In this document: one piece after another, positions 1,547-63,202 of the stretch
Numbering within the stretch: the stretch's first letter is position 1
How the letters are laid out: each line of letters opens with the position of its first letter
Assembly (NCBI GenBank): GCA_964016885.1
Contig: OZ024740.1
Location: 374,046,001 to 374,110,000, forward strand
Origin: Eledone cirrhosa
Taxonomy: Eukaryota
Direction of reading: 5' to 3'
DNA: 64,000 nt
The notes under the pieces: model-generated
The model's input: only the letters and a program-made list of their open reading frames with translations
What the model was told of the DNA's origin: nothing
Databases searched by the model: none
Made by a program: the position numbers and the translations under genes

Positions 1547-1613
<67 letters not shown>

Positions 1614-1759
1614 TTTTGAGTTTATGTTGGTTGTATACCAACACCTCAGTATGCAGGCTGGAGCACTCGACGAAGTGCGCAGGTTGGTTTGGTTACTCCG
1701 GAGTAGTGTAAAATAAAGTTAAATAAAAGTCAAATGATTAAAATTTAGCTTCGTTTATT

Positions 1760-1814
1760 ACTGCTATATATATTTCAGTGACAGCCATCTTTGGCTGTGA
1801 CCTCTTCAGGCAGT
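1760..1814 (-). ncRNA. Type I hammerhead ribozyme (family B, left arm)
   Basis: Reverse complement of 2050-2104. Confidence 0.75.
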
Positions 1815-2049
1815 TTGAATTAGAATGGTATAGACAAGTACATATGTTGTTTAGGTGTATGATATTGTCAATACTCTGATATGCCCAGTTCCTTGTTGGG
1901 TTGTTAATTCACTGGGGAACTGGAGTCATTGGATACGACTCCAGTTCCCCAGTGAATTAACAACCCAACAAGGAACTGGGCATATCAGAGTATTGACAAT
2001 ATCATACACCTAAACAACATATATACTTGTCTATACCATTCTAATTCAA

Positions 2050-2104
2050 ACTGCCTGAAGAGGTCACAGCCAAAGATGGCTGTCACTGAAATATATATAG
2101 CAGT
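2050..2104 (+). ncRNA. Type I hammerhead ribozyme (family B, right arm)
   Basis: actgc-CTGAAGA-ggtcacagcc aaagat ggctgtcact-GAAA-TATATA-TA-gcagt, immediately followed by AATAAA. Confidence 0.8.
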
Positions 2105-2148
2105 AATAAACGAAGCTAAATTTTAATCATTTGACTTTTATTTAACTT

Positions 2149-2192
<44 letters not shown>

Positions 2193-2796: not shown

Positions 2797-2850
<54 letters not shown>

Positions 2851-2851
<1 letters not shown>

Positions 2852-3039
2852 AATTGTTTCTACTTTAGGCACAAGGCCAGCAATTACCCAGTGCATTACT
2901 GGTACTTTATTTTATCGACCCCGTAAGGATGAAAGGCAAAGTCAACCTCAGCGGGATTTTAACTCAGATCGTAAAGGGACGTAACAATGCTGGAAAGCAT
3001 GGCATCCGACCCTCTACCGATACTGCCAATCCACCGCCC
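2851..3039 (-). mobile_element. tRNA-derived SINE, family S1 (representative copy)
   Basis: On the sense strand: A-box-like TGGCAGTATCGG, B-box GTT(C/A)AAATCC, body TTTGCCTTTCATCCTTACGGGGTCGATAAAATAAAGTACCAG (resembles the Meta-domain as I recall it), tail AGAAACAATTA(TT). Other copies at about 18276-18360(-), 19160-19347(-), 19658-19843(+), 20730-20894(-), 23760-23908(-), 24035-24262(+), 24490-24673(+), 43905-44096(-), 53402-53592(-), 56463-56650(+), 58479-58565(+), 60205-60385(-). Confidence 0.9.
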
Positions 3040-3289
3040 TCCTATTAATAATGAGGAACAAGAAGTAAGTACCAATATAACATCATTGTGTTTATTAACA
3101 TACGACGCCTGTTCCGCGATTGATCAGCTTAAAGTAAAATCGATAGCTCATCCGACTTGTGGAGTTAGAAATATATACTGCTATTGTTTTCGGTGATAGA
3201 CTTATATATATATATATATATGTGGCGGGGGGGGGGGGGGTATGTGTGTGTTTGTGTATGTGTGCATGTGTTTGAGGAAGGTTGCATTT

Positions 3290-6771: not shown

Positions 6772-6813
<42 letters not shown>

Positions 6814-7311
6814 TATATAAATCAATAAACGAATGATGAATTAAATAGAGTATATATATATATATATACGGATTAACAAATAATAGTTAAATGCAGTCCA
6901 CTTAGGTGAAGTCCAGTTATGGTATTCCAGGTAGTGGATGATATTAACGCTTGGTTTGGTTTGACTCAACAAGGCGTTTTCATAGTGATGCTGCGGGTAT
7001 GCTGTAATTCCTATGTTGTAAACACTTGGAGTAATAATAAATCAGGAAAGAAGGTTTACATGGTTTGCTATACAAACAAGTTTTTAATCACATAGCTTAC
7101 ATTTGTTTCACTGAACTGGTATGTCTAGAGATCGCTATCCGCCTAATTTTGCGTCACTCGATCTCGCCAATACAGTATTATAACCAGTCAGATCTTCGGA
7201 GCATGCGAGAATGAAGAAAATACACAGGCAAGAAAAGAAAAGAAAATATGGAGTAGTTATGGCATTCAATTAGAACAATAACAACAATTACAACAATGCT
7301 ATCAATAAACT

Positions 7312-7593
7312 GTGCACAGGCACTCAATGAAAAACCGTGCACTCATGGGTTCCACCTGCCTCGCCAGAAAAATATGGGAATTGAAGGACAGCAACGCTAG
7401 CTACACTATCAACTTGTCGAAGTTGTCGGCTGCTAAAACCTATAGTACAGGGATGTCCTATTGCGGGCTGTGTGATCTTGAGCTATTGTATATCCTTAGA
7501 AATGTTAAAAGGCTACTTAATAATAAGTTAGAAAGATCTATCTTCTGCAGACATAGAATAGCCACTAAATTCATAAGATTCAAACCTCCGTGA
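7312..7593 (+). pseudogene. C-terminal fragment of a Penelope-like GIY-YIG endonuclease
   Basis: STCLARKIWELKD...Y...CGLCDLE..YI....LLNNKLE...CRH matches the ST.L...IW.LK / CxLC / LN...E...CRH pattern of aquatic-invertebrate PLE endonuclease ends. It is truncated exactly at the inversion junction. Confidence 0.8.
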
Positions 7594-7919
7594 ATCGAAC
7601 CAACATAACATAGCTTTAAATTAGAATACCTACTACCCACAGAAATATATTCATTAAGTATACTATTTCCTTCACAAGTCTATACCACACAATTGTCTGT
7701 AAGTACCTCATCTACCAACAATCTTACTCCTTCTCAGCTGCTGCAATCATTTGATCCTAGATCCTAGTTTTTCTCATTTCACTACTACAATGTTACTTTA
7801 CCTTCTTTTTGCCATATACAATTAGCACGCTTTTCTCTTTGCATGTATGTATATTTTTGTACGAGTGTATATTGATGTGTATGTATGTGTCTATGTACAC
7901 ATATATGTGTATATATATT

Positions 7920-7972
<53 letters not shown>

Positions 7973-8311
7973 TCGTATATTAATTCGTTAACCTCTGTAT
8001 TAACTCTACAACTATTGAGCTTTGACAGTGGTCCCAGTCATGTATATTGTTGAAGATGAAGAGAAAGACTGTAAAAACTAGCTTATCTTTATAATTTAAA
8101 ATTGATACACACTACGATACTTTTTGCCTTATGACAGCTGGTTTTCACGCCGTACATTAGATACATTATATACCCCCACCTAAGTAATGTCAGGGTCTCC
8201 TTAAATAGTTTATTGATAGCATTGTTGTAATTGTTGTTATTGTTCTAATTGAATGCCATAACTACTCCATATTTTCTTTTCTTTTCTTGCCTGTGTATTT
8301 TCTTCATTCTC

Positions 8312-8425
8312 GCATGCTCCGAAGATCTGACTGGTTATAATTCTGTATTGGCGATCGAGTGACGCAAAAGTAGGCGGATAGCGATCTCTAGACATACCAG
8401 TTCAGTGAAACAAATGTAAGCTATG
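8312..8425 (+). ncRNA. HHR-like motif with a long stem II and a U4C core change (mirror copy at about 7090-7206 on -)
   Basis: gct-CCGAAGA-T CTGACTGGT...ACCAGTTCAG T-GAAA-CAAATG-TA-agc. Confidence 0.55.
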
Positions 8426-8473
8426 TGATTAAAAACTTTTTTGTATAGCAAACCATGTAAACCTTCTTTCCTG

Positions 8474-8522
<49 letters not shown>

Positions 8523-9767
8523 AATTGCAATATAATATTTATCACTTATAACTTTAAACATATATATTCACTGTTCATCGTTCGTTTATTGATTTATATA
8601 TTGACTTCTTTGAATTTAAGTTGTGTTTTATTCTCACTGTCATTTGAGGTCTTCTTTAATCGTAGACAGATACAATGGACAGCAGCAAAACAGGGTTACA
8701 ATTATATTTTATCCCCCAGTATTTTTTAGTAAAATCAAGACGTAATATACATAGCGATCTGAGGAGAAGAAATGAAGGAATGACTATCCTTGATTTATAT
8801 GTTTATTGAATAGTTTCAACTTACCCCAAGACCCAATCTATATTTTTAGTATGTCTATGGGATCAGTAAGTGAATATAATTATATTGAGGGAAGTTAAAT
8901 ATGCATGGTAGGCAGGGTAATGGCAGATTTTAAAATTATTTGAGAGAGTGCCTTGCGGTATATTTTTTGGTCCCCCTCTCATGTTGTATCGGTCTATTCT
9001 TTCTTTCTATACATTAAATAGCCCTGTCCCAGATTGTCAGTACTCCGAGAATATCCAGCCTGGAAGAAATAAGCTTTTATCAGCGAGAAGTGTAATCTTC
9101 CAATGTCCACATAAACTATTTACTCTACAATCGCAATGATTTATTTTATGAGATATAGTAATTAGTGCAAAATATACATCACAACTAATGTATTCCTCAT
9201 CAGAATCTGAAAATATTTCTTCTCTCAAAGACCAATATAAGTTTACATCTGTGGTGTGTTTACTCATACACAAACACATACCCTCACTACATCTAAAACT
9301 AGGAAATTCAATTATTTGGGACGAAGACCCTCACACACAGACTCTAATTGCTGGTATTTGCATTTGAAGTTGGGGCTTTAGATTCATCAAGCTGAATCTA
9401 CTTCGTTTCAAACCCTCTTTAAATAATTGGAACATTATATGCAGGATTTCAATTAAACAGTTGGTAGGACTCATTCATTGCCACTGAACATCAATTTTAA
9501 TATATTGTAGATCATTTCAAAGTTCAATATATACAAGCCAGTAATTTCATCCAATACAACACTGTCTGTTCGGTATTTAATACGCATCATGGACCTCCAA
9601 GTCAAATAATTTCTAAAAATAACTGCTAATACCATACCAGTACTGGTATCCTGCCCTTTCACTTTTACCTCATGCAATATTTTGTAAACATTAATAATTT
9701 GGAAAAACCTTGGGAAGCATTGCATTTTTCTCCACTGTATTTGAAATTTAAATCTTCAAAGTGACGT

Positions 9768-9967
9768 NNNNNNNNNNNNNNNNNNNNNNNNNNNNNNNNN
9801 NNNNNNNNNNNNNNNNNNNNNNNNNNNNNNNNNNNNNNNNNNNNNNNNNNNNNNNNNNNNNNNNNNNNNNNNNNNNNNNNNNNNNNNNNNNNNNNNNNNN
9901 NNNNNNNNNNNNNNNNNNNNNNNNNNNNNNNNNNNNNNNNNNNNNNNNNNNNNNNNNNNNNNNNNNN
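9768..9967. other. Assembly gap (200 N)
   Basis: Run of n characters. Confidence 1.
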
Positions 9968-10741: not shown

Positions 10742-11121
10742 TATTTATTAAAATAACAGATTAAAGTTTAAGCAAAAACTCGGTGCTTTCACCTTTAACG
10801 GATCTTTTGAAACTAACAAAGTCAATGTGTGAACGCAGATGTGAATATTTCAAAAAATCGTTGCCAGGGAACGTTTCACGAACCAAAGTATCGTCTTCTC
10901 GTCTTCCTCCGGTTGCAACGCCTTTTGAAATATTCACTTCTGCGTTTACAGATTGACTTTGTTAGTTTCAGAAGATCCCGTTAAGGTGAAAGCATCGATT
11001 ATTTGCTTAAACTTTAATATGTTATTTTAATAAATATTTCCTCTACGGTTCTTATATATTTGATATATATTTACCCTTATCGAGCCCTCTTTGGATTTTA
11101 CTCCTTCAAATTTATTATTAT

Positions 11122-11125
<4 letters not shown>
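10742..11125. mobile_element. Family D fold-back element in (TA)n
   Basis: Arms at 10742-10864 and 10915-11036, right extension 11037-11125. Carries an HHR-like relic, CAGAAGA-TCCC gttaa GG(G)T-GAAA. Fragments at about 2187-2297, 12345-12530, 19353-19405, 19606-19659 and 55845-55965. Confidence 0.75.
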
Positions 11126-11266: not shown

Positions 11267-12572
11267 GAGGATGTCTGTGTGTCTGTTCCCTAAAACTCGA
11301 AAAGTACCCAACGGCTGTTTTTCAAACTGTACACGTGTAATAACTATGACCCCGGAAGTGCTTTCAGCAAAAACAAATTTCAAATTATTCTGTCCTAGGG
11401 ATCGAATTAGTGAAGTGACCAATGTCTCTACATAATGAGGGAGTGAGATTGGAGAGAAAGAAACGGTGAGGGCGAAGTGACGAAGTGGTTTTTTTCTCCT
11501 CTTCCTCTTACTCCCATTAGTCACAGCGTTTTTCGATAGAATGTAAGTTACAAAGAGAGAGAGAGAGAGTGAGAGTGAAAGAAAGAGACAAACTACAAGA
11601 GGGGGATAGCGGGAGGGAGAGAGAGAGTGAAAGACGCTGTCTTTTGATACTGTCAAAGATACATAACGTATAACTATTAACATCTCTGCGTGTGTGTGTG
11701 TGTGTGTGAGCGTTCCAATAAGAGTAAAATCTATTAACATGTGAGTGTGTGTATGTGCACATATGCGCGTGTGAGTTTTGCCATATGTATATGCGTCTGT
11801 ATCTGTATACACGTGTATATATATATATTATTATTATTATATATATATTTATATTAAATATTTAAAGTGAAACATAACCAATTTTTCAGGGTACTTGCTG
11901 ATGAGATCTGGATATGGTATTTTTTCACTTCTTCATTTATCGAAACTTATTTGGATTTTGAAGTTTAAACTTATCTACGGAACAGGTTTGGATTTTGAAA
12001 TTTGAATTTGTCCAAGTACCACGGCCATTTGCCAATATGGTTTGTTTTTATTGATTTATTATTTTAAATCGAGACAGGCAAACTGTATTATTATAATTAG
12101 TATTTTTCTCAATCTAGCTAACTTAGTCATTTACAATACAAACACTTATATGTTGGTATTTGTGTTTATCATATATATTAATTTATATTAACTTGTATAT
12201 ATATTTACATACGTGTATATGTCGTCTGCTTCCCTTATGAGTTAAATCTATTAACGAGTGTGTGAGTTTAGAATAACACATCTCTATACAACATATTTTA
12301 TTTTGCTCTTTTCTTCTAAAATGTAAGGAACAATTCATTCAAGGGCAGAATATCCCGTTAAGGGTGAAAGCAGTGATTATTTGCTTAAACTTTAGTCTGT
12401 TATTTTAATATATATATATATATAATTATATATTTATGGACAGATATTTTTGCATACAAAATAACAAAATATAAACAAACGTATTTATTTCACGAGGTTC
12501 GATAAGGATAAATATATATCAAATAATAAAAACCCTATAGCTAATCCCCAGCAAAGCCGGGCCATTCTGGTA

Positions 12573-13519: not shown

Positions 13520-14241
13520 ATATATATAATGATTGCTTTCACCTGCTTCCACTACACTTTGCTTTCGCGACATGTATGTTCTGTGAACCACACAGATAAA
13601 TTGCATTTGAACGCCACCTATAACACTTGTCGCCATACTGTGATGGATACATGGAGTTCCACTATATGATGGCTTCATCTGAATCCCGTTTTATCTGGCT
13701 CTGCTTACATTCACTTTGGTTGATACCATTCTTAAACTGTCACCTCTGAAATCTTCTACTGTCTACTACCATATTTAATTGCATTTATTTAAATTGCTTA
13801 TATAATGTGTTATCTTTTATGTTTCATTTTTATTGTTTTTTTATATTTCCTTATATTATCATCACTTTATTGTTATCTTTATTTTATCTTTACTTCTAGA
13901 CTCTACGTTTTACGTTTTATCTCTTAACATTAATTTCCTTATCTTTTAATTTTCTTTATCTTTAATTATGTTTCATTATTTTTCCTTATTTTTCCTTATC
14001 TTTAATGATTGTAAGTGATTTGTGTCTAATATTTATCGGCTTCTAGCGGTGACGAGTCGGCCAAGCACCCCACTCTTCTTAGTCCTCTGTGCTACATATG
14101 GATCGTTCTGGTGATATAGGTCGGTAGAATTTATACTATTGATCTAATTCCTCTTTATAACGCTCTGATGAGTCCTGCAAGGACGAAACACTGTCAGCAA
14201 ATAAAGATTAATTGATAATGTAAGCGCTCTTTGTTTTTGTT

Positions 14242-14245
<4 letters not shown>
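13520..14245 (+). mobile_element. Penelope-like 3' end: endonuclease-tail remnant, T-rich UTR, HHR
   Basis: LNATYNTCRH near 13607-13636 resembles the LN...CRH tail of the ORF at 7312. An HHR follows at 14162-14198, then AATAAA and (TA)n. Confidence 0.55.
14162..14198 (+). ncRNA. Minimal type I hammerhead ribozyme with a canonical core
   Basis: gct-CTGATGA-GTCC tgcaa GGAC-GAAA-C act G-TC-agc, with a GUC cleavage triplet. Confidence 0.85.
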
Positions 14246-14274: not shown

Positions 14275-14547
14275 ACATTCCCTTCGTTATATATATATAT
14301 ATATATATAACGAATGGAATGTGGTAAGGAACCAGGTGGACCATAACGTCGGGGTCTTACTGGTTCTTATATATATATATATATATAGGAAAAAGTATGA
14401 CCCCAACGGCAGACCTCAAGCCGTTTCGACGGCTTGAGCTCTGCCGTCGGGTTCATACATATTTCCTATTACCCACTCTACTACCCTAAGTATTGATTAC
14501 TCTGCTGCGTTATGGTCCATCTGGTTCCTTACCACAATTCCTTCGTT
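14271..14547. mobile_element. Family C fold-back element (rearranged cluster)
   Basis: Three pieces (14271-14288, 14309-14368, 14387-14547) separated by (TA)n. They share termini with the other family C copies. Confidence 0.8.
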
Positions 14548-14565
14548 ATATATATATATATATAT

Positions 14566-16939: not shown

Positions 16940-17700
16940 AAAAGAATAATACCGCAGTAATACAGAGAGCATGGTTCAGAACAATGATGAGAGAAGACAT
17001 AACACGCAATAGTAATGCAAACGCTAGCAAGCTAGTCAGAATGAATATGTGTATTTTGGTATTGACTGACATCATATATTACTAAGTGGCTGAGTATTCC
17101 GGAGATACTGGTCTCTTGATCGTGATTTACAAGCCGAATCAGCATGACATGATGACTGATGCAACTTGTACACATCTCGGCTTCAATCAAGAGGTTTTGT
17201 GTCCGCTCTAACCTATGTGTCCTCATCATTTCAAACAGAATATGTCCAGGAAGCGCTACACAATATGTCTAAAAGACTTATTTTCAACCAGTTGCTATTC
17301 CACCTGAGAGAACCTTTTATGCGAGAGTAAAGAGTAGCTTAAAAGACGAACGCAGGCTTCCAATCTATGTCTCAACTGTCTACTTCAACGCTTCCGAAAT
17401 CCAGGGAGAAAATTTGCAACCGCTGCATCAAAACGGAACGAAGATGTTCCCACATAAGCAAAGGCGTGCGGCTTCCAACCTTCAATTGCTGCAGAGATTC
17501 GTTCCAGTAGAATAGACGCAGATCGTAGTTTGTCACAAAATGCAATGCTCCAAAATGGAAGAATTGATGAAAAGGGATGCTCAGTAGGAATCTGGTAGTT
17601 GAATTACACGTACAATTCCATTAAAGGATCCCCACCGTTTTCCTCAATCCAATACAAACACCAAATCACATATACATAGTTCAGAGGTTAGGCAAGTGAA
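16940..17700. pseudogene. Possible decayed Tc1/mariner-type transposase relic
   Basis: Only frameshifted hints: W.EYSGD (like WPxxSPD) on + near 17087 and VIWC...VGSF on - near 17640-17675. Confidence 0.2.
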
Positions 17701-18901
17701 TATCCTTGCATTACTTAAAACATATACAAGGGATACATACGATCGTCTTCTACTTCCTTAAACTATCTGGTCCTATCTATGAGACTATAGAGACACAAAC
17801 ATGATGTCGATAATGATGGCCGGGTCTTTATGAACATAACAGTATCAAAAGATGATAATGTTTATACCGTACATGTCATTAACCCGCTGTAGATTAAGGT
17901 GGATATTATTTTCGATATGAGAATTTTTAATAATGAATTAGTCGTGCAATTAGACAACAAGTTTAGAAAGGATCTGCTTGAAGTATGAGTCGATTCTTAA
18001 CTCTTTACATTCCTGAAACTGCTATTTAGTCTGTCACAGTATTGAAATGTGGTTAAAATATACCACACACCAGGCCATACTACTTGTCAAATGAGAAGTA
18101 TACTGTATGAAATAAAGTGAATGATAGACAATATTTTCTTCCTTTGTATTCCAAACACTAACGACATAAAAAAAAGGATAAGTTGTATAACGTAGTACTG
18201 ATATGAAAGGAAATATCTCCATGCACATGTTAGCAACATTAGTTACATATAACTCTGCATGATTAGTGCCAACTTGGATAAAATGATGAAAGGCAAAGTT
18301 TACCTCTGCGGGATTTGAACTCAGACCATAAAGGGACGTAACTCTTTGTTGCAAAGCATGACAAGAACATCACTATATTGGGCAAGTCTTTTTTATCGTA
18401 AATAATTAGTTGTCCATCCGGACATCGTCCATGCTATATGGAGCTTGAACAAATAAGTGAAAATAAGTTGGAGAAATAGCGAATGTAAAGTGTGACATGT
18501 ATAAAATAGACTTGAAACGTCAGAGCAACTGTTAGACGGTCGGGAAAAGAGGAATACGAAAGAATGTGAATGTGAGGGAGAAAAATAGTTTTATGGGGAG
18601 GGGGGGGAGTGGAATAGAGTATACTAAATGTAACAGTGTATACAGTGTAACATAAAATCTATTCAGATTAGGGAGCGTTGGGAAAAAAAAAGCACTTTCA
18701 CTGTTATACACACAGTGTATAACAGTGAAACTTAGAATAAAATACATTCCTTGTCTGTAAATAGTTAGGTAGGAAAATGTATGTTTATATATATATATAT
18801 GCAGGTACATATATAAATGTATACATGCACACATACCCACACACACACACACACACTCACACACACACACCACACACACACATATATATATATATATATT
18901 T

Positions 18902-19089
18902 AACGAAGGAAATGTGGTAAGGAACCAGATGGACCATAACGCACCAAAGTACTCAACACTTAGGGTAGTAGAGTGGGTAATAGGAACGAGTAGGCCCCGA
19001 CGGCTGAGTTCTAGCCGTTTCGACGGCTAATTCTGGACTGAATTAGCCGTCGAAAAGGCTTGAGCTCAGCCGTCGGGGTGCTACTCGTT

Positions 19090-19092
<3 letters not shown>
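18902..19092. mobile_element. Family C fold-back element
   Basis: (TA)n-AACGAAGG...turn...CGTTCCT-(AT)n, with an 80-nt extension at 18902-18981. Further copies at 20398-20602, 22885-23076, 28698-28813, 48958-49180 and 50145-50337. Confidence 0.85.
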
Positions 19093-19156
<64 letters not shown>

Positions 19157-19450
19157 TTAATAATTGTTTTTACTTTTGGCACAAGGCCAGCAATTACCTA
19201 GTGTTTTACTGGTACTTTATTGTATCGATCGTGTAAGGATGAAAGGCAAAGTTTACCTCTGCGGGATTTGAAATCAGACAATAAAGGGACGTCACTCTTT
19301 GCTGCAAAGCATGGCGCCCGACCCTCTACCGATACTGCCAGTCCACAATAATAATGAATGTGAAAACTAAAATCCAAAGAGGGCATTAATCTGTTATTTT
19401 AATAAATAATATATATATATGATATATATATATATATATATATATATCTA

Positions 19451-19554: not shown

Positions 19555-19845
19555 TAGATAGATAGATATATATATATATATGTATATATATGTATATATA
19601 TATTCTTTATTAAAATAACAGATTAATGCCCTCTTTGGATTTTAGTTTTCACATTCATTGGCAGTATCGGTAGAGGGTCGGACGCTATGCTTTGACGTAT
19701 AGAGTTACGGCCCTTGCCATTCTGAGGTCAAATCCCGCCGAGGTTAACTTTGCCTTTCATCCTTACGGGGGTCGATAAAATAAAGTACCAGTAATACACT
19801 GGGTAATTGCTGGCCTTGTGCCTAATGTAGAAAGGAATATTATTA

Positions 19846-19895
<50 letters not shown>

Positions 19896-20041: not shown

Positions 20042-20279
20042 GATAACAAGTCCCAGGGGTAAATAATGTATTGGAGATTGAGTGACGCAACTTCAAGCGA
20101 TTAGTGACCTCTAGACTCACATGATCAATGAAACAATTGTCAGTACTTGAAATAAAGCTCCTTATTGATTGCAGTTCCTCAGTGAAATAACAACCCAATC
20201 TGGAACTGGGCATATGAGAGTATTGACAAAATTATACACCTCAACAACATATGTACTTGTTTCTACCACACTAATTCGG

Positions 20280-20334
20280 ACTGCCTGAAGAGGTCACAGC
20301 CAAAGATGGCTGTCACCGAAATATATATAGCAGT
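20280..20334 (+). ncRNA. Type I hammerhead ribozyme (family B, copy 2)
   Basis: actgc-CTGAAGA-ggtcacagcc aaagat ggctgtcacc-GAAA-TATATA-TA-gcagt. The ribozyme looks better conserved than the sequence around it. Confidence 0.8.
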
Positions 20335-21138
20335 AATAAACGAAGCTACATTTTAAACAATTGACTTTTTATTTTACTTTATTTTATGTATATATATAAC
20401 GAAGGAAATGTGGTAAGGAACCAGGAGGACCATAACGCACCAAAGTACTCAATACTTAGGGTAGTAGAGTGGGTAATAGGAACGAGTAGGACCCCGACGG
20501 CTGAGCTCAAGCCGTTTCGACGGCTAATTCTGGACTAAATTTTAGTCCAGAATTAGACGTCGAAACGGCTTGAGCTCAGCCGTCGTGGTCCTACTCGTTC
20601 CTATATATATGTAACAATATTTTCGAAACAGCGAGTGGATTTGAAATTATTAGAAATGTTAGCTATCGCCGTATTTTGACTAAAGAAAGTAAAGAAATTA
20701 TTTAGCCTGATAGTATATATATATATATGTGTTTCTACTTTAGGCACAAGGCCAGCAATAATCCAGTTCATTACTGGTACTTTATTTTATCGACCCCGTA
20801 AGGATGAAAGGCAAAGTCAACCTCGGCGGGATTTGAACTCAGATCGTAAAGGGACGTAAGTATGCTGGAAAGCATGGCGTCCGACCCTCTACCGAATTGA
20901 TAGACAGTCATGTAAACAATTGTTTGTGTTGAAAGGTGTGTGGTAGAGATTATGTCTATCTTGCCTCTGTAAATAGAAACAATTAATGAAATGTTAACGG
21001 TGATTTACGTATGTGTGCGCCAGGTGCTACAAAATCGATTGCTTTTCAAAAGGCCATAAGATTCACTAGATTTTTTTCAGTGATTTTTATCTTGTCCCGT
21101 TACTGCGATCCTGGTGATATGGCAGCACAGTTTCTTAT

Positions 21139-21985: not shown

Positions 21986-22020
21986 ATATATATATATATA
22001 TATACACATATATATAATAT

Positions 22021-22385
22021 TATATAGAAATAAACACACAAAGAAGTGTGTTTAGAATTACATGGGTTGAAAAACCACTTTGGTGCAATGGATATATATA
22101 ATCTAAATGTGAATTAAAATGTACTATCCGTTTAATAATTATTGTAGCGGTTAGTACATTTTAATTCACCTTTTCCGGTTATTATGTATTTTCCGTTTGT
22201 TCATAGATTATATCAATTACACCAAAGTGGCTTTTCAACCCATGTAATTCTGAATACACTTATTTGTGTGTTTATTTCTATATATTGTATTATAAAGAGC
22301 TTAGTTTTTGTACTTTGAGATAATAAATTACAGGCTATTAATGCACGTTTTTAACATTGCTTTTCATTCGTGTATGTTTATTTAT
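22021..22385. mobile_element. Family E fold-back element in (TA)n
   Basis: Diverged arms at about 22021-22122 and 22152-22284, with a right extension of about 100 nt. No HHR was seen. Confidence 0.7.
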
Positions 22386-22392
22386 ATATTTA

Positions 22393-22831
22393 TATAAGCA
22401 AAGTGATATTTAATTTGTTGGTAATTCAACAACTATTTTTATAACAGATTTATAACAGATTCGAAGCACTCGACAAGTTTTCTGGAGTATAATATCAATG
22501 ATATTAATAAATGGAAACTATATTTATAAAACCATATTTATTATATTACATATATTTCAAGGGGACAAACACTTTGGTATGCACTCATCAGATTAAATAC
22601 AAAGTTTGTTTTATAAATATTGACATATCCAGGAATGAGATCTTAACGGTTCAAGTTTCACGGTGAAACTTTAAGAGATAAGGTCTAATTCCTGGATATG
22701 TCAATATTAATAAAACAAAATGTGTATTTTATCTGATGAGCGCGTACCAAAGTTTTGGTATCCTTGAAATATATATCATAGAATAAATATGGTTTTATAA
22801 ACATAGTTTCCATTTATTAATATTATTGATA

Positions 22832-22832
<1 letters not shown>
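22393..22832. mobile_element. Family F fold-back element with an HHR in both arms
   Basis: Arms at 22492-22645 and 22679-22832, left extension 22393-22491. A further single-arm copy lies at 26414-26645. Confidence 0.8.
22725..22785 (+). ncRNA. Type I hammerhead ribozyme (family F; mirror copy at 22541-22600 on -)
   Basis: tattttat-CTGATGA-...taccaaa gt tttggta...-GAAA-TATATA-TC-atagaata. Confidence 0.7.
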
Positions 22833-22887
<55 letters not shown>

Positions 22888-23074
22888 CATGTTTAACCGC
22901 GAGGGCAGAGCTCAAGCCGTTTCGACGGCTATTTCTGGACTCCAGAAATAGCCGTCGAAACGGCTTGAGCTCTGCCTTCAGGGTTAACATTTTCCTATTA
23001 CCCACTCTACTACCCTAAGTATTGAGTACACTGGTGTGTTATTATCCATCTGGTTATTTACCAAACTTCCTTCG

Positions 23075-23114
<40 letters not shown>

Positions 23115-23130
23115 TTATATATATATATAT

Positions 23131-23415
23131 GTTAATTGAACAAGTACTTTCATGCTTTCGCAATTTTCGGGTTCATATTCAGTGGTGACAGTCAAGTTTG
23201 CAATTTTTACAGTTGAAAATAGCAAACTTGACTGTCACCACTGAATATGAACCCGAAGATTGCGAAAGCAGGAAAGTACTTGTTCAATTAACACTTAACA
23301 TTTCAAATTCTACCATACTATTTCATTATAATATCATTATAATTTTATAGGATTGTAAATAAAACGAGTAAATCAGACAAAGTTGTAATTCCTTTTATTA
23401 ATATAATCTTCTATA
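23131..23415. mobile_element. Family G fold-back element in (TA)n
   Basis: Near-perfect 71-bp arms at 23131-23201 and 23222-23292, with a right extension of about 120 nt. Only a weak CTGAATA...GAAA relic is present. Confidence 0.75.
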
Positions 23416-26024: not shown

Positions 26025-26441
26025 ATAGCATAATGAACATTATATTTACAATTTGAGTATCCATCCGTGGAAAAGCTCATTTCGTCGCTCGCACTTCCTT
26101 AAATTTTCTTCACTATCACTCTGCATAATCTTGTCTCTCTTTCTTTCTCCCTTTTTTATCACCCTTTTTTCTTTCTTCTCTCTCTTTCTCTTTTTTTTTC
26201 TCTCTCCATTTAACTATTCTTTCTCTCTCCCTTTCAATATGTTTTCTCTCTCCCTTTCACTAGTTTCTTCCAACAGTTTAATTTAAATAAACCGTTGTTT
26301 TTTCAATTTTTCTGACACTCATTTGCATACTTACTCATAATTTTGAATCGCCATCAATTAAAATCTGTTCCACTATCCAGCGAACCTCAACCGTTAAGGT
26401 TGTCTTTCTGCGGGTATGTCAATATTTATAAAACAAATTTG

Positions 26442-26507
26442 TATTTTATCTGATGAAAGCGCACCAAAATGTGCATTGGTTGCCCTTGAAATATATATAA
26501 TAAAATA
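26442..26507 (+). ncRNA. Type I hammerhead ribozyme (family F, additional copy)
   Basis: Stem I TATTTTAT/ATAAAATA (8/8 bp), CTGATGA (26450-26456), GAAA (26488-26491), TATATA-TA. Confidence 0.7.
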
Positions 26508-26640
26508 ATTATGTTTTTATAAATATAGTTCCATTTATTAATATATTGAATATTTACTCACCTAAACTTTTGTGTGCTTTATATCAGTTTTAAACATTTT
26601 AAAGCTTGTTGAATCCCAACAAATTAAATATAACATCTGC

Positions 26641-26844: not shown

Positions 26845-26902
26845 TGAGTTGAGATGGAGGGTCTGTGGTTTTTCTCACATCATATATATATATATACATA
26901 TA

Positions 26903-27365
26903 TATTTTGCAATACACTGTATGCTTTATTAAAAACATTTTGACGACCTTACGCTATTGTTTTAAAGTAGTGACTATGTCACTTCTTTTTCAATAAGCAA
27001 AGGGAGATAAGCTGACATATCTCTGTTTCATACTCTTGATATTCCTCAGCACACCCCTTGTTTGTTGAACATTATTAATGTTGGATTCATATAGAATTCG
27101 AGTAATAATCAGGAATTGATAAATCAGAGCGGTTGCCGGTCCAGCAAAAATTGAACATTATAATTGGTGCTCTGAAATAGCGATATATATATATGAATGT
27201 ATATATAGTGTATTTTGCAATACACTGTATGCTTAATTAAAACCATTTTGAAGACCTTACGCTATTGTTTTAAAGTAGTGATTGTGTCACTTACTTCTTT
27301 TTTCAACAAACAAAGGGAGATAAGCTGACATATATCTGTTTCATACTGTTGGTTGGTATTCCTCA

Positions 27366-27366
<1 letters not shown>
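26903..27366. repeat. Direct repeat of about 150 bp (26903-27050 and 27211-27366)
   Basis: TATTTTGCAATACACTGTATGC...ATATTCCTCAG occurs twice, next to the minus-strand HHR. This fits a partial-tandem pseudo-LTR. Confidence 0.75.
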
Positions 27367-27461
<95 letters not shown>

Positions 27462-28608: not shown

Positions 28609-29199
28609 ATATATATATAACCATATGTATATATATATATATATATATATACATATGTATATATAAATATATATATATATGTATATGTATATATATAACA
28701 AAGAGGGGTTTGGTAAGATACCTGGTGGACTATAACGCACCAGTGGTGTATTGGCTCGGACCTAGCTGTCGAAACGGCCGGAGCTCTGCCGTCGGGGCAC
28801 TTACTATTTTGCTATATATATATATATATATATATGCATATATCGTGAGAAAGGTAGACAATTGAATGAGAAAAGAACCACACACTCCACTCAATTAATA
28901 GAATTTCTCTGCAATTCGTATCAAATAACTAACTTTTTACGAGTTGTTACGTACGATCGTGTAGATATTTTCTATACAATCTGGTGAAAATGTAATCCAT
29001 GAATTAAGTATATCTCTAACGTACGTGTACACACGCATACAAACAGACAATGTTACCGAAAATCAGTCGATTATACTTACAAACATCTAAATAAAATACA
29101 AACATACCAGCCTAATCATCGAATGAAAAACGGGCAGGCTGTACTTCAATCATCCAACATATGTTAAAATAATTTCAACTATAATTAACTAATGAAGCC

Positions 29200-29760: not shown

Positions 29761-29807
29761 CAGATTGCTAGAGACTTTTTGAAACAAAACTTATTATTAT
29801 TATCACT

Positions 29808-31550
29808 GGGCGGTGGATTGGCAGTATCGGTAGAGGGTCGGACGCCATGCTTTGACGTATAGAGTTACGGCCCTTGCCATTCTGAGTTCAAATCTCGCCT
29901 AGGTTAACTTTGCCTTTCATCCTTACGGGGTCGATAAAATAAAGTACCAGTAATGCACTGGGTATTTGCTGGCCTTGTGCCAAAATTAGAAACAATTATT
30001 ATCACTACAAGGGCGGTGGATTGACAGTATCGGTAGAGTGTTGGACCCCATGCTTTGACGTGTAGAGTTACGGCCCTTGCCATTCTGAGTTCAAATCCCG
30101 CCGAGGTAAACTTTGCCTTTCATCCTTACGGGGTCTATAAAATAAAGTACCAGTAATACACTGATTTAATTGCTGGCCTTGTGCCAAAAGTAGAAACAAT
30201 TATTATCATTACTATTATGACAGGGCGCTTGTCCAAGTGTTCAGGGTGGCAGTGGCTTTTGTTTTATTTTTCTACGAGTAACCCTCGGTGGTCTCCCCTT
30301 ATTGGAAATTTTCCTGTTTCGATTTTGTGTCACACTCTTCGTTTTTATTATTTGTTAATTTTTGTAGACAAAAAAAACATATTTGTACAGTCGTATACCG
30401 TCGGGTGCTGTCCTTAATTTATTTTCTTGTAAACCCTTCTGTGGCTAATAAAGGAAACATTATTATTATTATTACTATTTTATTTATTTAGGGCGGTGGA
30501 TTGGCAGTATCGGCAGAGGGTCGGACGTCATGCTTTGACGCATAGAGTTACGGACCTTGCCATTCTGAATTCAAATCCCGCCGAGGTTTACCTTGCCTTT
30601 GATCCTTACGGGGTCGATAAAATAAAGTACCAGTAATACACTGTTTAATTGCTGGCCTTGTGCCAAAAGTAGAAACAATTATTATTATTATTATTCGACG
30701 AGACAGTCCTGCACGCACTCGTCCAGTGTCCGAGCATTGCTGACTTGTGGGTTTATGTCGATCACCTGCTGTCACGTGTAGGATGGATCCAGTTATCAGC
30801 TGAGTCCATCGTGAGGATTACCCCACCCTCTTCCTTTAGTCGGGAAGGGCAGGCAGTTTTTATCTGTCTGGTGGCCATGGCGAAAGAGATAGTATGGTGG
30901 ACACGTTTGAAAGGGCTGAAGACAAGCACTTACCTCTTCGGTGATGCCCCGATTAACTTTTTTTCAAATTTCATTTGAAAAGGAAAATCAGGGTAGAGAG
31001 GGAAGTGCTCTCTTCCCAGCATTTTGTTGAAAGATGTGTGTGAGAAGTAAGTATGGCCCGAGTGAATGGGCCTACTCTGAGTATGTGTCTGTAAATTAAA
31101 TGTGGAAAACTGGGAGAGGGCACTTGCCCTGGTTGTCAGGGTCACTGTGTCCTTTTACTCGGCTTTCCCCACGAATGTCCCTCAGAAGTCTCCCCCCTAT
31201 TGGGGAATTTTGTATTGTTATTTGTTGTTACATCCTCTGTTTTTGTTTCTTTACACGCAGAAATGCCAATTTGTACCGTCCTGTATTGTCCTGTACTGTC
31301 TTTAATGTCTACTTTATGTAAAGCATTGTGGTTAATAAAGAAAGCATTATTATTATTATTATATGACGGCGGTGGGTTGGCGATATCGGTAGAGGGTCGG
31401 ACGCCATGCTTTGCCATTCTGAGTTCAAATCACGCCGAGGTTAACTTTGCCTTTTATCCTTACAGTGTCGATAAAATGAAGTACCAGTAACACACTGGGT
31501 AATTGCTGGCCTTGTGCCAAAAAATAGAAACAATTATTATTATTATTATT
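29808..31550 (+). mobile_element. Head-to-tail array of 4 S1 SINEs and 2 truncated Tx1-like LINE 3' ends
   Basis: In order: SINE 29808-30000, SINE 30011-30205, LINE tail 30219-30458, SINE 30491-30695, LINE 3' end 30696-31345 (homologous to about 37240-37910), SINE 31368-31550. All are on + and joined by (ATT)n-like runs. Confidence 0.85.
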
Positions 31551-31716: not shown

Positions 31717-32237
31717 AGTTGCATTTATCTTGCCTTATGTTATACGAGTTATCACCAAGTCACAACCAGTGACCTCAATAGACAACAAGGTCCGCCATGT
31801 TCAAGAAAGAACAAACATACACACACACATGCATTTTAGGTGTTTAGACTTGTGATGTACTTATATTGACAGAATCTTCCTTAGTATATGGGCAGTTCCC
31901 ATTAGTACTATCTTTTGTATTTCTCCTATATGCGGATTTCCTGGGTTTTGCGATAAGTAATCATTAGACCCCTTGGGTATCATTCCTAGAGCGCGTACAA
32001 CCACTGGTAGTGTTATTATTATTATTATTATTGGTCTAAGCGGACGTATTTTGCTCGCTCCCAGTAAGTCGCTTTATTTGCCTGTTAAAATTGTTTGTTG
32101 TTAAATATTCTTGTTGCGTAAGGGATATAAGCCCTTAGACTTTGCCCCGTGAAGGGGCAATTATAATATTTGGGACTTTTGGCCCAAATATTTGAACATT
32201 TTTGACATGTTAAAACATTTACGAAGAAAAAAAAAAC

Positions 32238-34184
32238 ATGGCTGGGCCACGCCCCCCAGCTATATGTCTGCTGTCGTGCGACGACGACATAGAAGTTGAG
32301 AGAAACGCTACAGCAAAATTAACACACATTGCTAACACAAACACCACCACAAACAAGGTAAACAAAGACACCAATGATACCAATGAGAACTCTAATTTTG
32401 AAAAAAATGACGGTAACAGTGACAACGAAAATACAGATAACAAAAGAAAAAATAACAAATACAACAATATCAACACCACTAACATGAAATCAAATAGCGA
32501 CAACACCAACACCAACAATACCAACTGCACAGAGAACAACGGTGGCAACAAAGACAACAATGATAACAGCGACAGTGATAGCAACAACACCAACAAGAAC
32601 AACGACAACGACAACAACACCCCCAACGAAGACAAGAAAAACACCTTCGCTACGGCAGTAGCAAAAAAGACGCCATGCTTCAACATGGACCTCTTTAACA
32701 AAGATGAAAAGTTGATCCAGGCATGGAAGCTCATCAAGCAAGAGCAAACCTGGGCCAACTTAACTCTCTCGGTAGAAGCTATTGAGGCATTATATATGCA
32801 TCTCAGCACAAACCAAAAGGGCAGCTTTAATCCCACAAGCAGATGTCGAAGTCGCTCTGAGGTGCATCAGAGAAAACACCGAATACATAGAGAGGGACAG
32901 ACAATACGGCACCATTTCGGTGTTGTTCAAGTCAGAAGCCCTCGCTATGAAACACGCTATGACTCCTTGCAAAACCAGCAATGTCATAATGTACTCCTCC
33001 CACATGGGAAAAAGAACGGACTGTCTTTACATGTGGTGACTTTACATGTGGTGGCTTCTGTGATGTGTGATTGTAGAGGGGACGAATACTGTCCCTATAG
33101 AAGTGACCAAAACGAACAGAGAGGACTGATCCGGGGTTGACCTGGAGATCCTTCTGAGGATCAGACCCGATAATGTGAAAACAATCCCGGACCACATCCG
33201 CCTTCAGAATGGGACGGTCATTCACATTATGACCGAAAGTCAAAGGCCGCAGTCTTTTGTTTGTGAGGAAAAAACCCATTTGCGAGCTTTCTGCCCTCAA
33301 CTGCTGAAAGAGGCAAGGGGTCGAAAGGCTCCACTGCTGCCGACGCCGGGACGAGGACCACAACCAACACCAGCACCGGCAAAACCACCAACAACAACAC
33401 CAATAGAAAGACCACCACCAACATGACCACCCAGGGGGTAAACGGGGAAAGCTGTCAAAATCCCCCTCACCCCAAAATACACACACCAATAAAACCATAA
33501 ACATACATACAGACACACTTACAGACACAGACCCCTCATCTACCAGTAGTGAAGATGAGGGAAAACCAAAATCTTCCAAAATACAAAAAAGGAAACACAA
33601 AAAGAAAAAAAAAAATCAACAAAGCACAAAATCACCCACAATAAATAACGCAGACACCACCCATGCAAACACCTCTCCAATAACACCAACATCAACACCA
33701 CCATCACCATCACCAGAATCCCCCAAACGCAAACAACCTAAACAGACGCAAGAACAAATGTACACAAACATCTGAAACCACAGACACCGTACTCACAACA
33801 AACACAGACACAACCGAAACAACACCACCAAATCCATCGCCACCACAACCACCCAAACAAATAAAATCGCACCAACAAAAGATACAAAAGTTTGTGCTCG
33901 TCCGGAGAGCCAACAAGGAACTAATGGCCCTCGTAGCACGAAGTGAAAATATACAAAAAGAGAGGGACATTTTAAAGTCGAGCATACTTCGCGTGCCGGA
34001 AGATTTGGTTTTGGTGCGAATGTCGATCGATATATTCAAAGAAATACGAGACAGCTTTCCTCGGGACGTGGGAACCCCGAACGTAAAACCCACTTCAAGA
34101 CTTTTAAAGGGGTTCCCAAAAGAAACCCCACCAACTATGGAGGTCGAACAACCCGACCTTCACAAGAGCCCGGAAGGTAAGTAA
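32238..34184 (+). pseudogene. LINE ORF1 (frameshifted)
   Basis: Asn/Thr-rich N-terminus, TFATAVAK (like SYAxAV), a degenerate zinc knuckle SFVCEEKTHLRAFC (Cx2Cx4Hx4C with the first Cys lost) and a Pro/Thr-rich linker. Confidence 0.75.
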
Positions 34185-34215
34185 ACATTCCTCTGTCTCT
34201 TTTTAACCTGCCAAC

Positions 34216-37200
34216 ATGGCCGTATTAAGAGTAGGATGCTTAAAAGTTCGAGGTCTGGGATCGTCCTGGAAGAAGGGTCAGCTGCTCAACGACCTCAGGT
34301 CTATAGAAATGGATGTAATTGCCGTCAGCGAGACCAGGATTTCCGACACGCGCGCACTAGCCCCCATTTTCGACGACTATCAGATCTTTGCATCTGTTAG
34401 CCTGCCGGGAATGGGAGGCGGGGTGGCAGTGCTGTTTAGGAAACGCCTGGATCTCGAGGTAAGGTCGATCTTCCGGGACCCGGACGGGAAGTTGGTGGTC
34501 CTAGACGTGAACAATAAAGAAGGTGGTGCCTTTAGACTGGTGGCCGTCTATGCTCCTACTGGGGCAGGACGGCCGGACTTCTTTAGGCGCCTGGAAGCAT
34601 TTCTGGGTACGTCTCGCCCTTTAGTGTTAGCGGGGAACTGGAACGGCATCTCAGACGCACGCTCGGACTGTGTGGGAGTATCCGATAGGAGCGGGGGCGT
34701 GCAAAGCCTCAAGAACCTGATCAGCCAGTTCCAACTGTCTGACAGGTACCGACTGGATTTCCCTAATGCGCCAGTGTGGACCTGAGCTAACCGCATAGGG
34801 TCATCTAGATCGTATATAGACAGGATATTCATTAGGAAAATAGACAGAAGTAGTGTAAGCTGTCCACGTTTTGAAAGGGTCGCCTATTCAGATCAGAAGT
34901 TTGTGATCTGTATGGTCGACCTAGATAAGACGCGTAGGTTAGGACCTGGTTACTGGAAGCTAAATTTGTCATTTCCGGCACGTAAGGCTTACAGGGACCA
35001 GGTCAACATTTAGTTTAGAAAAAGTTGACAGGAAGAGCCGTCAACAATAGATGGTGGGGGGTTCTCAAAAGAGAGATTAGAGTAATGTCGACAGAGTTTA
35101 GTAAAAAAAGTAGCATTAGAGAAAAATAGAAAGGAGGGAGAGTTGGTAGATAATTTAGACGAGGCTATTGGTAGTGGCATTGCAACTGATGTGCTGGCGG
35201 CGAGAATGGCATTAGACCATTTCTTCAATGCGAAACACTAAGGTTGCATTGTCAGAGCGAAGGCGCATACTCTGAGAAACGAGGGAACCAAAGCTGTTCG
35301 ATGGGCCCGTGTGGCAGAGGCACAGCGTGGTAATAAAACCACGATTCGGTCTTTGACGGACCGAGACGGGCTCGAGCTGAGCGATTCCAAGAGGATGTGT
35401 GAGGCTTTTCGCCAACATTTGCTCGGTTCTTCGGGGGAAGTGGCGGGTCAGAGATGGTGGCGGTCTTCAGTCCCTACCTCGATGGCTTGCCGTAACTCTC
35501 GACGGCTGACGCTGAGCGCTGCGAAAGGCCAATTACTTCAGCCGAGATTCAGGATGCCCTTGTACGCTGCATGAGGCGCAAGTCACCCGGTTTGGATGGT
35601 CTGCCCTACGAGCTTTACGTAAATATGTCAGACTTGTTCTCCAATCTCCTCGAAGTCCTCTACTGCAACTGACAGCAAAGCGGGAGTATTCCCAGTTCTG
35701 TGAGCCGGTACGTAGTGACGCTGATAAGGAAGGACGAGAACAAGAGGGACACATTAGACAATTTCAGGCTCATAACTCTGCTCAACACAGAGTTTAAGAT
35801 TTTGGCCAGGGTCTTAGCGAAGAGGTTGGGGCTTGTCGTCAGGGATTTGTTTGGGGAGGCGCAAATTTGCGCAATCCCAACCAGGTCCATACACGACAAC
35901 CTCCACCTAATGCGATACATCATAGAGAGGGTAGGGTGTAAACCTGGCTTCGGTGGGGCTCTGATCAATTTAGATCAAACGAAAGAATTCGATAGGGTCG
36001 ACCATCGGTACCTGGAGGCTGTCCTCAAGGCGGCTGGCTTCGGCCCCGTCTTCAGAAGCTGGATCGCTGAAATGCACAGCGGCACCTGCTCGATGGTCTA
36101 AATTAATGGCCACCTCTCGAAACCGTTTCAGGTCTCCCGATCAGTCCCTCAAGTGTGCCTTCTCTCCTCCCTTCTGTACGTATTGACTCTCGAGACTTTA
36201 CTGCGGAAGCTGGAGCTGTTTCAGGGCATCCAGGCTCGAACCGGGACGCGGAAAGGCTGTGTCGGCTTATGCGGACGAGATCACCGAAATGGTGTCGGAC
36301 ACCTCAGAAATCGAGGTGGTCAGCAACTTATTGGAGGAATATGAAAGATTGACGGAAGCAAAACTTAACCCGGAGAAGGCAGTGGGCTTGCAATTCGGCA
36401 CCTGGAGAGGCAAGTCCATGCCGTCCAACAGCGTCGTTAGGCGCTGGACGGACGGACCGGTAAAGTTGCTAGGGGTTTGGTTCGGGCCAGACCTCCAGGT
36501 GGATAAGAATTGGGACGAGGTGACGGGCAGGGTAGTCAGTCTCACCCAGAAATGGGCTGGGATGAAGCTATCACTGAAAGGTCGGGCGGAGGTGGCGAAC
36601 GCATACATCGCGTCCGTCATCTACTACCGTCTGATTGTCGTCACTTGCCCCCGTTCGCGCCTCGCCATCTTGGAGTGGCTCCTCTTCAAATTATTGTGGA
36701 GGGGTCAGGTTACGCTCGTGAGGCGATCCTTGTGCTGCCAGCTCCCTCTATGTGGAGGGCTGGGCATGTCGTGGCTAATGATGCGCAGGCACGCGCTGAG
36801 GCTGCGGCATCTCCAGATATTCTGCCTAAACGGTGAACAGGTGTCGTCGCTGTTTGTCAGACGGGCCTTTCCGCAGCTCGTTTCTTTGACTGAGTTGCAG
36901 TCCCGGGTCAAAAAAGACCGAGACTGGGTGACTGGCATCTGGAATGTTGCCAGGCACTCACTGCCCTATACCAGCCGGGAAATGCGGTCAGTGGAACTTC
37001 TACTCTCGAGTTCTATAGAGGATTAGTGGTGGGCAAGTGCGACGACGCACTCGGAGAGGCTCTGGGAGTCAACGAAGTCGAACTAACCAGTCTGTACCGG
37101 AGGACTTTCGAGCCGGGGACGATGGATAATTTCCAAAAATCCCTCGCTTGGCAGTGCTACCGGGGGGGCACTGCCGGTTCGAGATAAACTCTACAGGCAC

Positions 37201-37638
37201 TGAAGTGCTGTCAGACGGACCTGCCGGTGAAGCGCGCAGAGCGACGAAACCGTTCTGCACGCAGTCGTCCAGTGTCCGTGCATTACTGACTTGTGGAGTT
37301 ATGTTGAACAGCTGTTGTCGCGTGTAGAACGGATCCGGCTATCGGCCGAGTCCATAGTGAAGATCGACTCGCCGCCTTCTTTTGGCCAGGAAGGACAGGC
37401 AATTTTCCTCTGTCTGGTGGCAGTAGCGAAAGAGGTTGTATGGTGGACGAGGTTGAAAGGATTGAAGACAGACACTTTTCTCTTCGGCCAATCCCTCATC
37501 AACTTTTTCAAGTTTCACTTGGAAAGGAAGGTGAGGGTGGAGAGAGAAGTGCTGCCCCCGAGTACATTTGCTGAAATGTGGGTTAATGTGGCGAGAATGG
37601 ACCGTGTGCGTGGGCCTACTCTGGTCATGCGGCTTTAG
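34216..37638 (+). pseudogene. LINE ORF2: AP endonuclease, reverse transcriptase and Cys-rich C-terminus, with many stops and frameshifts
   Basis: Endonuclease motifs: LKVRGL, SETR, VYAP, AGNWN, YIDRI. RT motifs: KSPGLDGLPYE, RLITLLNTEFKIL, LDQTKEFDRVDH, AYADEI, LLGVWF, GGLG. Confidence 0.92.
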
Positions 37639-37931
37639 GTAGGTAAATTTGAAGAGGAGAGAGGTGCCCTTCCAGGGTGCTCTCGAAGAGTCGGGTCGTT
37701 CAGGACTGGTGGGGTACCTGAGCGAACCCTAGGTGGTCATCCCCACTATTGGGGAATTTTTTTCTTGTTGTAATTTTATTGTTACTTTACTGTTACTTAT
37801 TGTTACTTTGTTTATTCATATTGTTTACTCGATTTTTCTGTAAAACCCCACTGTCCCAGTCTTTTGTATTGTCCCCTATATGTCGGCCCTAGTGGCCAAT
37901 AAATGAAATCATTATTATTATTATTATTATT

Positions 37932-63168: not shown

Positions 63169-63202
63169 CAAACATGTATATATGTATATTTGTTTATGTG
63201 TA

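Follow-up and report, generated by a model that had tools for sequence, protein, structure and literature searches.

Among Penelope-like retrotransposons (PLEs), the Hydra clade (Hydra-1_Obim, Hydra-1_Crog, Penelope-13_HM; PMC8557442), whose members are EN+ PLEs with a C-terminal endonuclease (EN), is the closest described system to the locus reported here. Its proteins are described as carrying RWK and DKT, a CxCX5C linker and a divergent reverse transcriptase (RT), without CCHH (Craig 2021, PMC8557442). In Fig. S7 of that paper CxxC and CxH flank a conserved E and N and are called Hydra-specific, and the nine Penelope, Nematis and Neptune rows shown there lack them. Insertion into (TA)n and a canonical type I hammerhead close to the 3′ end also characterize the clade. 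Published descriptions call hammerhead ribozymes universal in this clade, and the tables of the same paper already include a Hydra family with an inverted truncated copy and a record of the clade from an octopus. More generally, inverted truncated copies and one-sided tails are standard PLE features (PMC3846280, PMC8557442), and a case has been made that retrozymes derive from PLEs. Pairs of minimal hammerheads, one on each strand and 100-700 bp from each other, were described for Schistosoma by Cervera and De la Pena (2014, PMC4209133), and the link of such fold-backs to coding PLEs is already published.

We analysed a 64-kb window, by which we mean the whole stretch of Eledone cirrhosa DNA under study, and found a single insertion within a (TA)n tract at 6869-8478 (Table 1). 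With a probability of roughly 80%, it is a dead, 5′-truncated Hydra-clade PLE that arrived in that tract in one insertion event. The element is an uncatalogued new family within a known clade, and its arrangement is a known one. A sequence-only reading of the same DNA had described an asymmetric inverted structure, and comparison of the arms bears this out: 270 of 275 columns (98%) are identical in inverted orientation between 7037-7311 and 8207-8478/8479, with three substitutions and one 2-nt indel, and the left arm is 168 nt longer. Read outward, both arms are sense 3′ ends of one element. The 5′ truncation, the inverted truncated copy at the 5′ end and the one-sided tail, an optional feature, are the architecture of EN+ PLEs.

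The tail opens with ACTCC, 4 nt beyond the short end, and contains an AC-rich stretch. Profile searches detected no ORF homology in it, and its 57-codon open frame, faintly like Hydra N-termini, was rejected as lacking profile support. On its inner side the left arm is joined directly to the coding frame, which starts where the arm ends (7311/7312). Read in frame, the three triplets that precede the break (CAA TAA ACT) look like codons for Arg-Tyr-Thr; this may be a microhomology at the junction, but it is not significant.

TA tracts lie at both ends of the element. The sequences outside them (6812-6840 and 8573-8601) match each other in inverted orientation at 27 of 28 positions, a score reached by 0 of 5000 random draws. 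Since the flanks form an inverted pair, the element entered the central TA tract of an older fold-back as one unit; its boundaries are thereby fixed, and the empty site can be recovered via the outer fold-back. The arms of this older fold-back end in TGATTTAT, resembling the short end of the element. No second copy of the whole 6869-8478 unit is present in the window.

Table 1. Positions of the element, its flanks, its hammerheads and the fold-back families of the window.
Feature	Positions	Strand	Basis or remark
Older small fold-back, left arm	6812..6850	-	Inverted match to 8573-8601
Target (TA)n, left half	6851..6868	.	Sequence
One-sided tail (long 3′ end), 168 nt	6869..7036	-	Beyond the position at which the right arm reaches (TA)n
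Left arm, inverted 5′-truncated copy	7037..7311	-	Self-alignment with right arm
Predicted type I hammerhead, left arm	7088..7208	-	Core CCGAAGA at 7199
C-terminal 93 codons (7312-7590) and TGA stop, Hydra-clade PLE ORF	7312..7593	+	HMMER, profiles, motifs
3′ untranslated stretch, unusually long	7594..8206	+	ORF continuity inferred from one copy
Right arm, 3′ end of ORF-bearing copy	8207..8478	+	Stops at short end, TA-ambiguous by 1-2 nt
Predicted type I hammerhead, right arm	8310..8428	+	Layout as Hydra table; folding
Target (TA)n, right half	8479..8515	.	Sequence
Older small fold-back, right arm	8516..8601	+	Inverted match to 6812-6840
Sole other relative in window: stem-II loop and hammerhead 3′ half	20062..20159	+	73-76% identity
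Family B fold-back	1612-2155		Arms 99.5% identical, canonical hammerhead core, 97-nt tail
Family B relative, 90%	20166-20388		After the element-related hammerhead-loop piece 20062-20159
Family C fold-back and solo relative	22440-22832, 26383-26601		
Family D fold-back and solo relatives	10742-11124, 2204-2298, 12346-12545, 55812-55965		Decayed hammerhead-like core
Family E, eight head-to-head insertions	14305-14370, 14385-14555, 18894-19094, 20390-20604, 22881-23084, about 28689-28815, 48950-49184, 50143-50345		
Family F fold-back	23130-23293		Hydra-type hammerhead, U4C in both arms, sequence unrelated to element
Family G fold-back	22013-22294		

The peptide encoded at 7312-7593 carries, in order, CGLC, E, LNN and CRH, that is, CxxC and CxH around E and N as in the Hydra clade. 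A HMMER scan of 1.84 billion representatives returned 486 proteins at E<=1e-3 (best 9e-12, identity at most 47%), and CxxC..E..N..CxH is present in 131 of the best 150 matches. The fragment ends at a stop, and 223 of 273 alignments finish at most 15 residues from the C-terminus of the relative. In a frameshift-tolerant profile scan of the window, the peptide site scored 107-121 bits against a median of 14-20 across 428 bins; the top background bin of this endonuclease scan, 17300-17442 (+), reached 26-38 bits, probably by chance. Pfam found no domain in the peptide, two word-based searches run with the peptide by itself yielded no homologue among 66 and 3 candidates, no phage match was seen, and a PDB sequence search with the EN profile gave three weak and unrelated matches.

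A profile built from 29 sequences (the peptide and 28 short matches) led to 134 longer proteins, 120 of them listed; both organism-labelled proteins among the 120 come from corals. Relatives of at least 600 aa (n=32) all have DK[TS], [YF]RDD and a CxCx5-7C linker, 25 have RW[KRA] and 31 the full C-terminal motif. In 25 longer relatives Pfam detected neither RT nor GIY-YIG, and the RT call is therefore based on motifs and on resemblance to the rows of Fig. S7 in PMC8557442; among 18 shorter relatives it reported GIY-YIG in two, below cutoff. An AlphaFold model of one relative, P0067 (88 sequences, pLDDT 85), resembles I-TevI over residues 135-256 (Z 9.3, rmsd 2.4, 89 aligned), and also T4 EndoII (Z 8.3) and UvrC (Z 6.6). 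Foldseek gave no match to this model at E<=1e-3, though the same nucleases ranked first. The EN region of a relative led to unnamed eukaryotic protein clusters and to one cluster in which 31% of members have GIY-YIG. Folded alone, the window fragment gave a poor model (pLDDT 65, pTM 0.43).

The motifs, the relatives and the nuclease-like model of a relative thus uphold the sequence-only reading in taking the fragment for a PLE endonuclease tail, and they place it in the Hydra clade. That reading had staked itself on PLE proteins as best hits and on full-length relatives with the same terminus; the matches are PLE proteins, and seven coding relatives carry a hammerhead 80-194 nt past the stop. 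Its description of a GIY-YIG tail joined to the inversion is right about the junction, CxxC and CRH, and needs qualifying insofar as GIY, YIG and the catalytic Arg are absent, being upstream of the break, while H, E, N, CxxC and CxH are kept. The fragment retains 19 of 25 strongly conserved positions and differs at six, one of these a W-to-L change seen in 0 of 204 relatives. The conservation profile kept 204 of 269 proteins and required the Cys/His motif, and those columns are therefore conserved by selection of the sample. Judged by its sequence, the fragment would not be able to act as a working nuclease.

Possession of both CxxC and CxH separates the peptide from Penelope/Poseidon, from Neptune and from Nematis. 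Naiad/Chlamys elements have an N-terminal EN, a C-terminal RT and no canonical hammerhead, and here the EN comes last with a predicted hammerhead after it. The RT region is missing from the fragment, and the clade assignment draws on the C-terminal motifs and on the marks of the relatives. Elsewhere in the window, 2541-2672 is a decayed Hydra RT fragment between microsatellites, 51% identical over 39 aa to a full-length relative and interrupted by one stop.

The predicted hammerhead of the right arm consists of stem I, the CCGAAGAU core, a stem II of 9 bp capped by a 60-nt loop, U-GAA and a 3-bp stem III, with cleavage predicted after 8418. This layout, with a U4C core, fits the Hydra hammerhead table of PMC8557442, including the U before GAA; in many rows there, stem II has a U on either side. 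Folded without constraints, the right arm forms stems I and II in its MFE structure, with the core open and the weak ACA-AA-UGU stem III unpaired; the left arm needs 0.6 kcal/mol beyond its MFE to adopt the hammerhead fold. Compared with shuffled sequences the fold shows no excess stability (z -0.3), and Rfam found no hammerhead across 6869-8478. U4C is reported as a natural variant with reduced activity in vitro that is nonetheless functional in a viroid (PMC3088659), and with U4C and a weak stem III the ribozyme of this element would probably be slow. The stem-II loop was also considered as a SECIS or kink-turn, a reading given up since its G-A pairs are not conserved in the relative at 20062.

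Both arms carry the CCGAAGA core that the sequence-only reading had noted (8319 on the plus strand, 7199 on the minus strand). The further claim, that this shared mutation proves copying from one template, does not survive: CCGAAGA recurs at 23253, and the same U4C occurs in both arms of the unrelated family F fold-back found there. CCGAAGA cannot be used as a mark of one template, because calling it a mutation would take a family consensus and U4C recurs as a natural variant. One common template for both arms is still likely on other grounds. Nor do we recover the LN...CRH remnant proposed to precede a hammerhead cited at 14162, whose core starts at 14165. The letters lie at 13607-13636 with an N-to-C gap of 5 residues, not 8-9, and two profile HMMs run over the window did not detect the site. 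In the frameshift-tolerant scan it scored 15-25 bits, ranking 92nd, 48th, 50th and 120th of 428 bins under four settings, and it stayed under the 95th percentile even when long deletions were made cheap. From the T-rich stretch, a decayed PLE end before this hammerhead is plausible, yet unsupported. The hammerhead itself (14150-14243, plus strand) is canonical and minimal, ends in (TA)n after the long T-rich stretch and has no other copy in the window.

Fourteen fold-backs of the window were dissected (A, B, C, D, F, G and eight insertions of family E). One short and one long 3′ end are paired in all 12 that could be scored (A, B, C, D and the eight E insertions); F and G were left out because their ends are not scoreable as long or short. 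Spacers measure 1-9 nt in 9 of 12 fold-backs, and tails are about 86-97 nt in the neighbouring fold-backs versus 168 in the element. An RCTCY motif lies 3-5 nt past the short end in four of six families, that of the element included (background 1.75%). Family C and E tails contain a hairpin, RCTCY..GAGYRCT (4 of 5 window matches), which was not found in the tail of the element, where the 3′ half is lacking. A spaced motif of 18 letters is common to the tail of family B and the 3′ end of Hydra-1_Crog, a likeness found by eye with the pattern chosen afterwards; it has one match in the window, with 0.02 expected.

In each of the eight family E insertions one arm ends at reference position 77 and the other at 163, and the breakpoints are all different. 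All of them break inside or past the hammerhead, so that the 5′ core is missing. The arms do not overlap in two insertions, 14305-14370 and about 28689-28815 (reference spans 116-163 with 57-77, and 110-163 with 27-77), and in six of the eight the two 5′ ends are at most 6 nt apart. The two arms of an insertion resemble each other more (0.90) than arms of different insertions do (0.83), a value reached by 2 of 720 pairings. This greater likeness would fit a single template, a source locus in common or gene conversion at a later time, and it may also mirror subfamily age.

The sequence-only reading had tied these non-coding fold-backs to coding PLEs. Shared architecture and the tail motif speak for the tie; DNA homology does not, since only 20062-20159 matches. 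We infer that the non-coding fold-backs are the product type of the element with both cDNAs stopped before the ORF. The family B relative, together with the piece that precedes it, is either a chimera or a two-hammerhead family. Non-LTR retrozymes, in which non-coding units with a hammerhead apiece are repeated head to tail, do not describe the element, whose arms are inverted and enclose coding sequence, and no tandem unit other than microsatellites was found in 6869-8478. A partial tandem does occur at 26882-27370 on the minus strand, with two units 85% alike and hammerhead cores at 27049 and 27366; it is retrozyme-like or a PLE partial tandem.

Ten further Hydra-bearing loci (L001-L010) came from GTDB records titled bacterial MAGs and are probably animal DNA binned with bacteria; one of them, L007, is a 492-kb contig with Hydra PLE sequence. 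Nine of the ten match the window peptide, four (L001, L004, L005 and L006) have an inverted truncated 3′-end copy as in the element, and six have the RCTCY..GAGYRCT hairpin. L004 contains a non-coding fold-back with 95-97% identity to the 3′ end of a coding element in L009, which shows the fold-back-to-coding-PLE link directly, in another genome. Long-short pairing holds in three of five scoreable pairs at these loci; of the other two, one is short-short and the second long-long. Not counted were L001, which meets a contig end, L007 and two L009 pairs, which are rearranged, and L010, which has no EN. In L005 the ORF arm bears the tail; in the window element the ORF-less arm does.

Other features of the window include a broken LINE at 32200-37640 with AP-endonuclease and RT remnants (Pfam), its partial relatives at 42390-42980 and 52206-52753, and a SINE of ~200 nt in more than 10 copies (2833-3055, 19131-19350, 19654-19871, 29790-30218 and others), some in inverted or tandem pairs. 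ARAGORN found no tRNA. The frequency of this SINE and the density of microsatellites would suit a cephalopod. A 314-nt unit is tandemly duplicated at 62565-63187 (95% alike), and 9768-9967 is an assembly gap of 200 bases.

Twin priming could account for the structure of the element. Its RT-endonuclease would nick both strands of the TA tract; the first nick would prime a cDNA at the long start site, the end of the tail, that stops at the equivalent of 8207, and the second would prime at the short start site a cDNA that reaches 7312, a point within the endonuclease gene. Head-to-head joining of both cDNA ends and fill-in would follow. We would put this mechanism, taken by itself, at even odds. 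A purified PLE cuts and extends both strands and prefers AT-rich DNA, and its RT begins at two internal sites bounding the tail (Frangieh 2024, PMC11167929). Long-short pairing and the non-overlapping arms fit two-strand priming at two RT starts better than the self-priming snap-back proposed for head-to-head PLE repeats (Arkhipova 2013, PMC3846280), in which a strand folds back and copies itself and the endonuclease trims one end or the centre is deleted unevenly. Snap-back, which we consider unlikely though a serious contender, draws on the 1-9 nt spacers, the near-equal 5′ ends of six E insertions and the greater likeness of arms within an insertion, and the PLE tail is ascribed in published accounts to endonuclease resolution. 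The six insertions that break at most 6 nt apart are explained more simply by it, unless both RTs ran off one broken RNA, and uneven deletion of palindrome centres could mimic arm non-overlap. Snap-back needs extra steps to yield the element, with its spacer of 895 nt and a tail on the shorter arm, and to yield the two E insertions whose arms do not overlap, and no primer match was found between the ORF break and the sequence before 8207. The ORF-bearing arm carries the short end, with the tail on the other arm; self-copying of one cDNA is disfavoured because it yields neither this placement nor the non-overlapping E arms.

Other explanations concern the unity of the element rather than its priming. 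The stop codon lies 726 nt from the hammerhead core, against 80-194 nt in the seven coding relatives, and the untranslated stretch between them contains a TA/TG microsatellite at about 7843-7980, the kind of tract that the Hydra clade targets. With only a single copy seen, these facts would suit a composite in which the ORF piece and the hammerhead arms of two Hydra families were fused at the microsatellite, here taken as 7880-7964, by nested insertion or template jump. We find this improbable: no second hammerhead core was found in 7594-8206, before or after the microsatellite, though all Hydra elements are said to have hammerheads; the inverted arm directly adjoins the ORF break and is 98% identical to the far arm; and the outer fold-back brackets the whole element as one insertion. 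Most simply, the gap belongs to one element whose untranslated region is long or was expanded in the host, and captured spacers of 0.9-1.5 kb are known from Adineta Pen1. The long inverted repeats and TA flanks also recall a DNA transposon of MITE-like or foldback type, moving as a fixed unit after capture of a coding piece, an idea that variable breakpoints largely refute: every E copy has its own, the outer arm ends are unequal, the arms carry predicted hammerheads, and the unit has no second copy in the window, so we hold it very improbable. Palindromes are a known read artefact. That an assembly artefact from a fold-back chimeric read, or a chance frame, lies behind the element is barely conceivable, given arms that differ at four sites, ends that sit at conserved termini, flanks that are an older fold-back and a peptide with E 9e-12.

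As such the element is ordinary, another dead Hydra copy of an uncatalogued family. It serves as an anchor that labels dense, short, TA-flanked palindromes as PLE debris, which repeat pipelines often leave as unknown, and its variant hammerhead suggests an undercount of hammerheads in genomes of this kind. For the step that forms PLE inverted repeats, strict long-short pairing offers an inexpensive genome-wide discriminator between two models. More tentatively than the mechanism itself, we propose as a rule that fold-backs reflect paired RT start sites, one per target strand, and that this Hydra lineage would also have long tails and U4C/60-nt-loop hammerheads that escape standard searches. 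If this is true, genomes like that of Eledone cirrhosa hold thousands of natural read-outs of PLE integration. We did not find a PLE twin-priming model stated in the literature searched, older PLE-structure papers being outside that search.

In LINE-1 twin priming, both target strands prime and the inverted piece is joined head to head; the two pieces have no overlap, one of them beginning at the poly(A). The pieces seen here differ in that each begins in the 3′ terminus region and that they overlap for the most part. Closer parallels are Penelope and the Adineta Pen2a pLTR (PMC3846280, PMC8557442), where, as in the element, an inverted 5′-truncated copy is joined at the 5′ end and only one end is extended; the tail reported in these papers for canonical PLEs is 30-40 bp, compared with 168 here. 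Anolis Poseidon PAc in vitro resembles the element, as modelled above, in two tail-bounding RT starts, cutting and extension of both strands and an AT-rich target, and differs in clade; the passages compared do not address inverted insertions (PMC11167929). The Schistosoma pairs are the same non-coding fold-backs, ascribed to truncated PLEs in 2014, in an account whose compared passage gives no clade, terminus pairing or mechanism (PMC4209133).

Within the Hydra clade, the peptide is about 30% identical to Hydra-1_Obim by a by-eye count, indicating a different family. The stem-II loop of 60 nt contrasts with 3-10 nt in the Hydra rows of PMC8557442, and a U4C core, an 885-nt 3′ untranslated region and a 168-nt tail also set the element apart.
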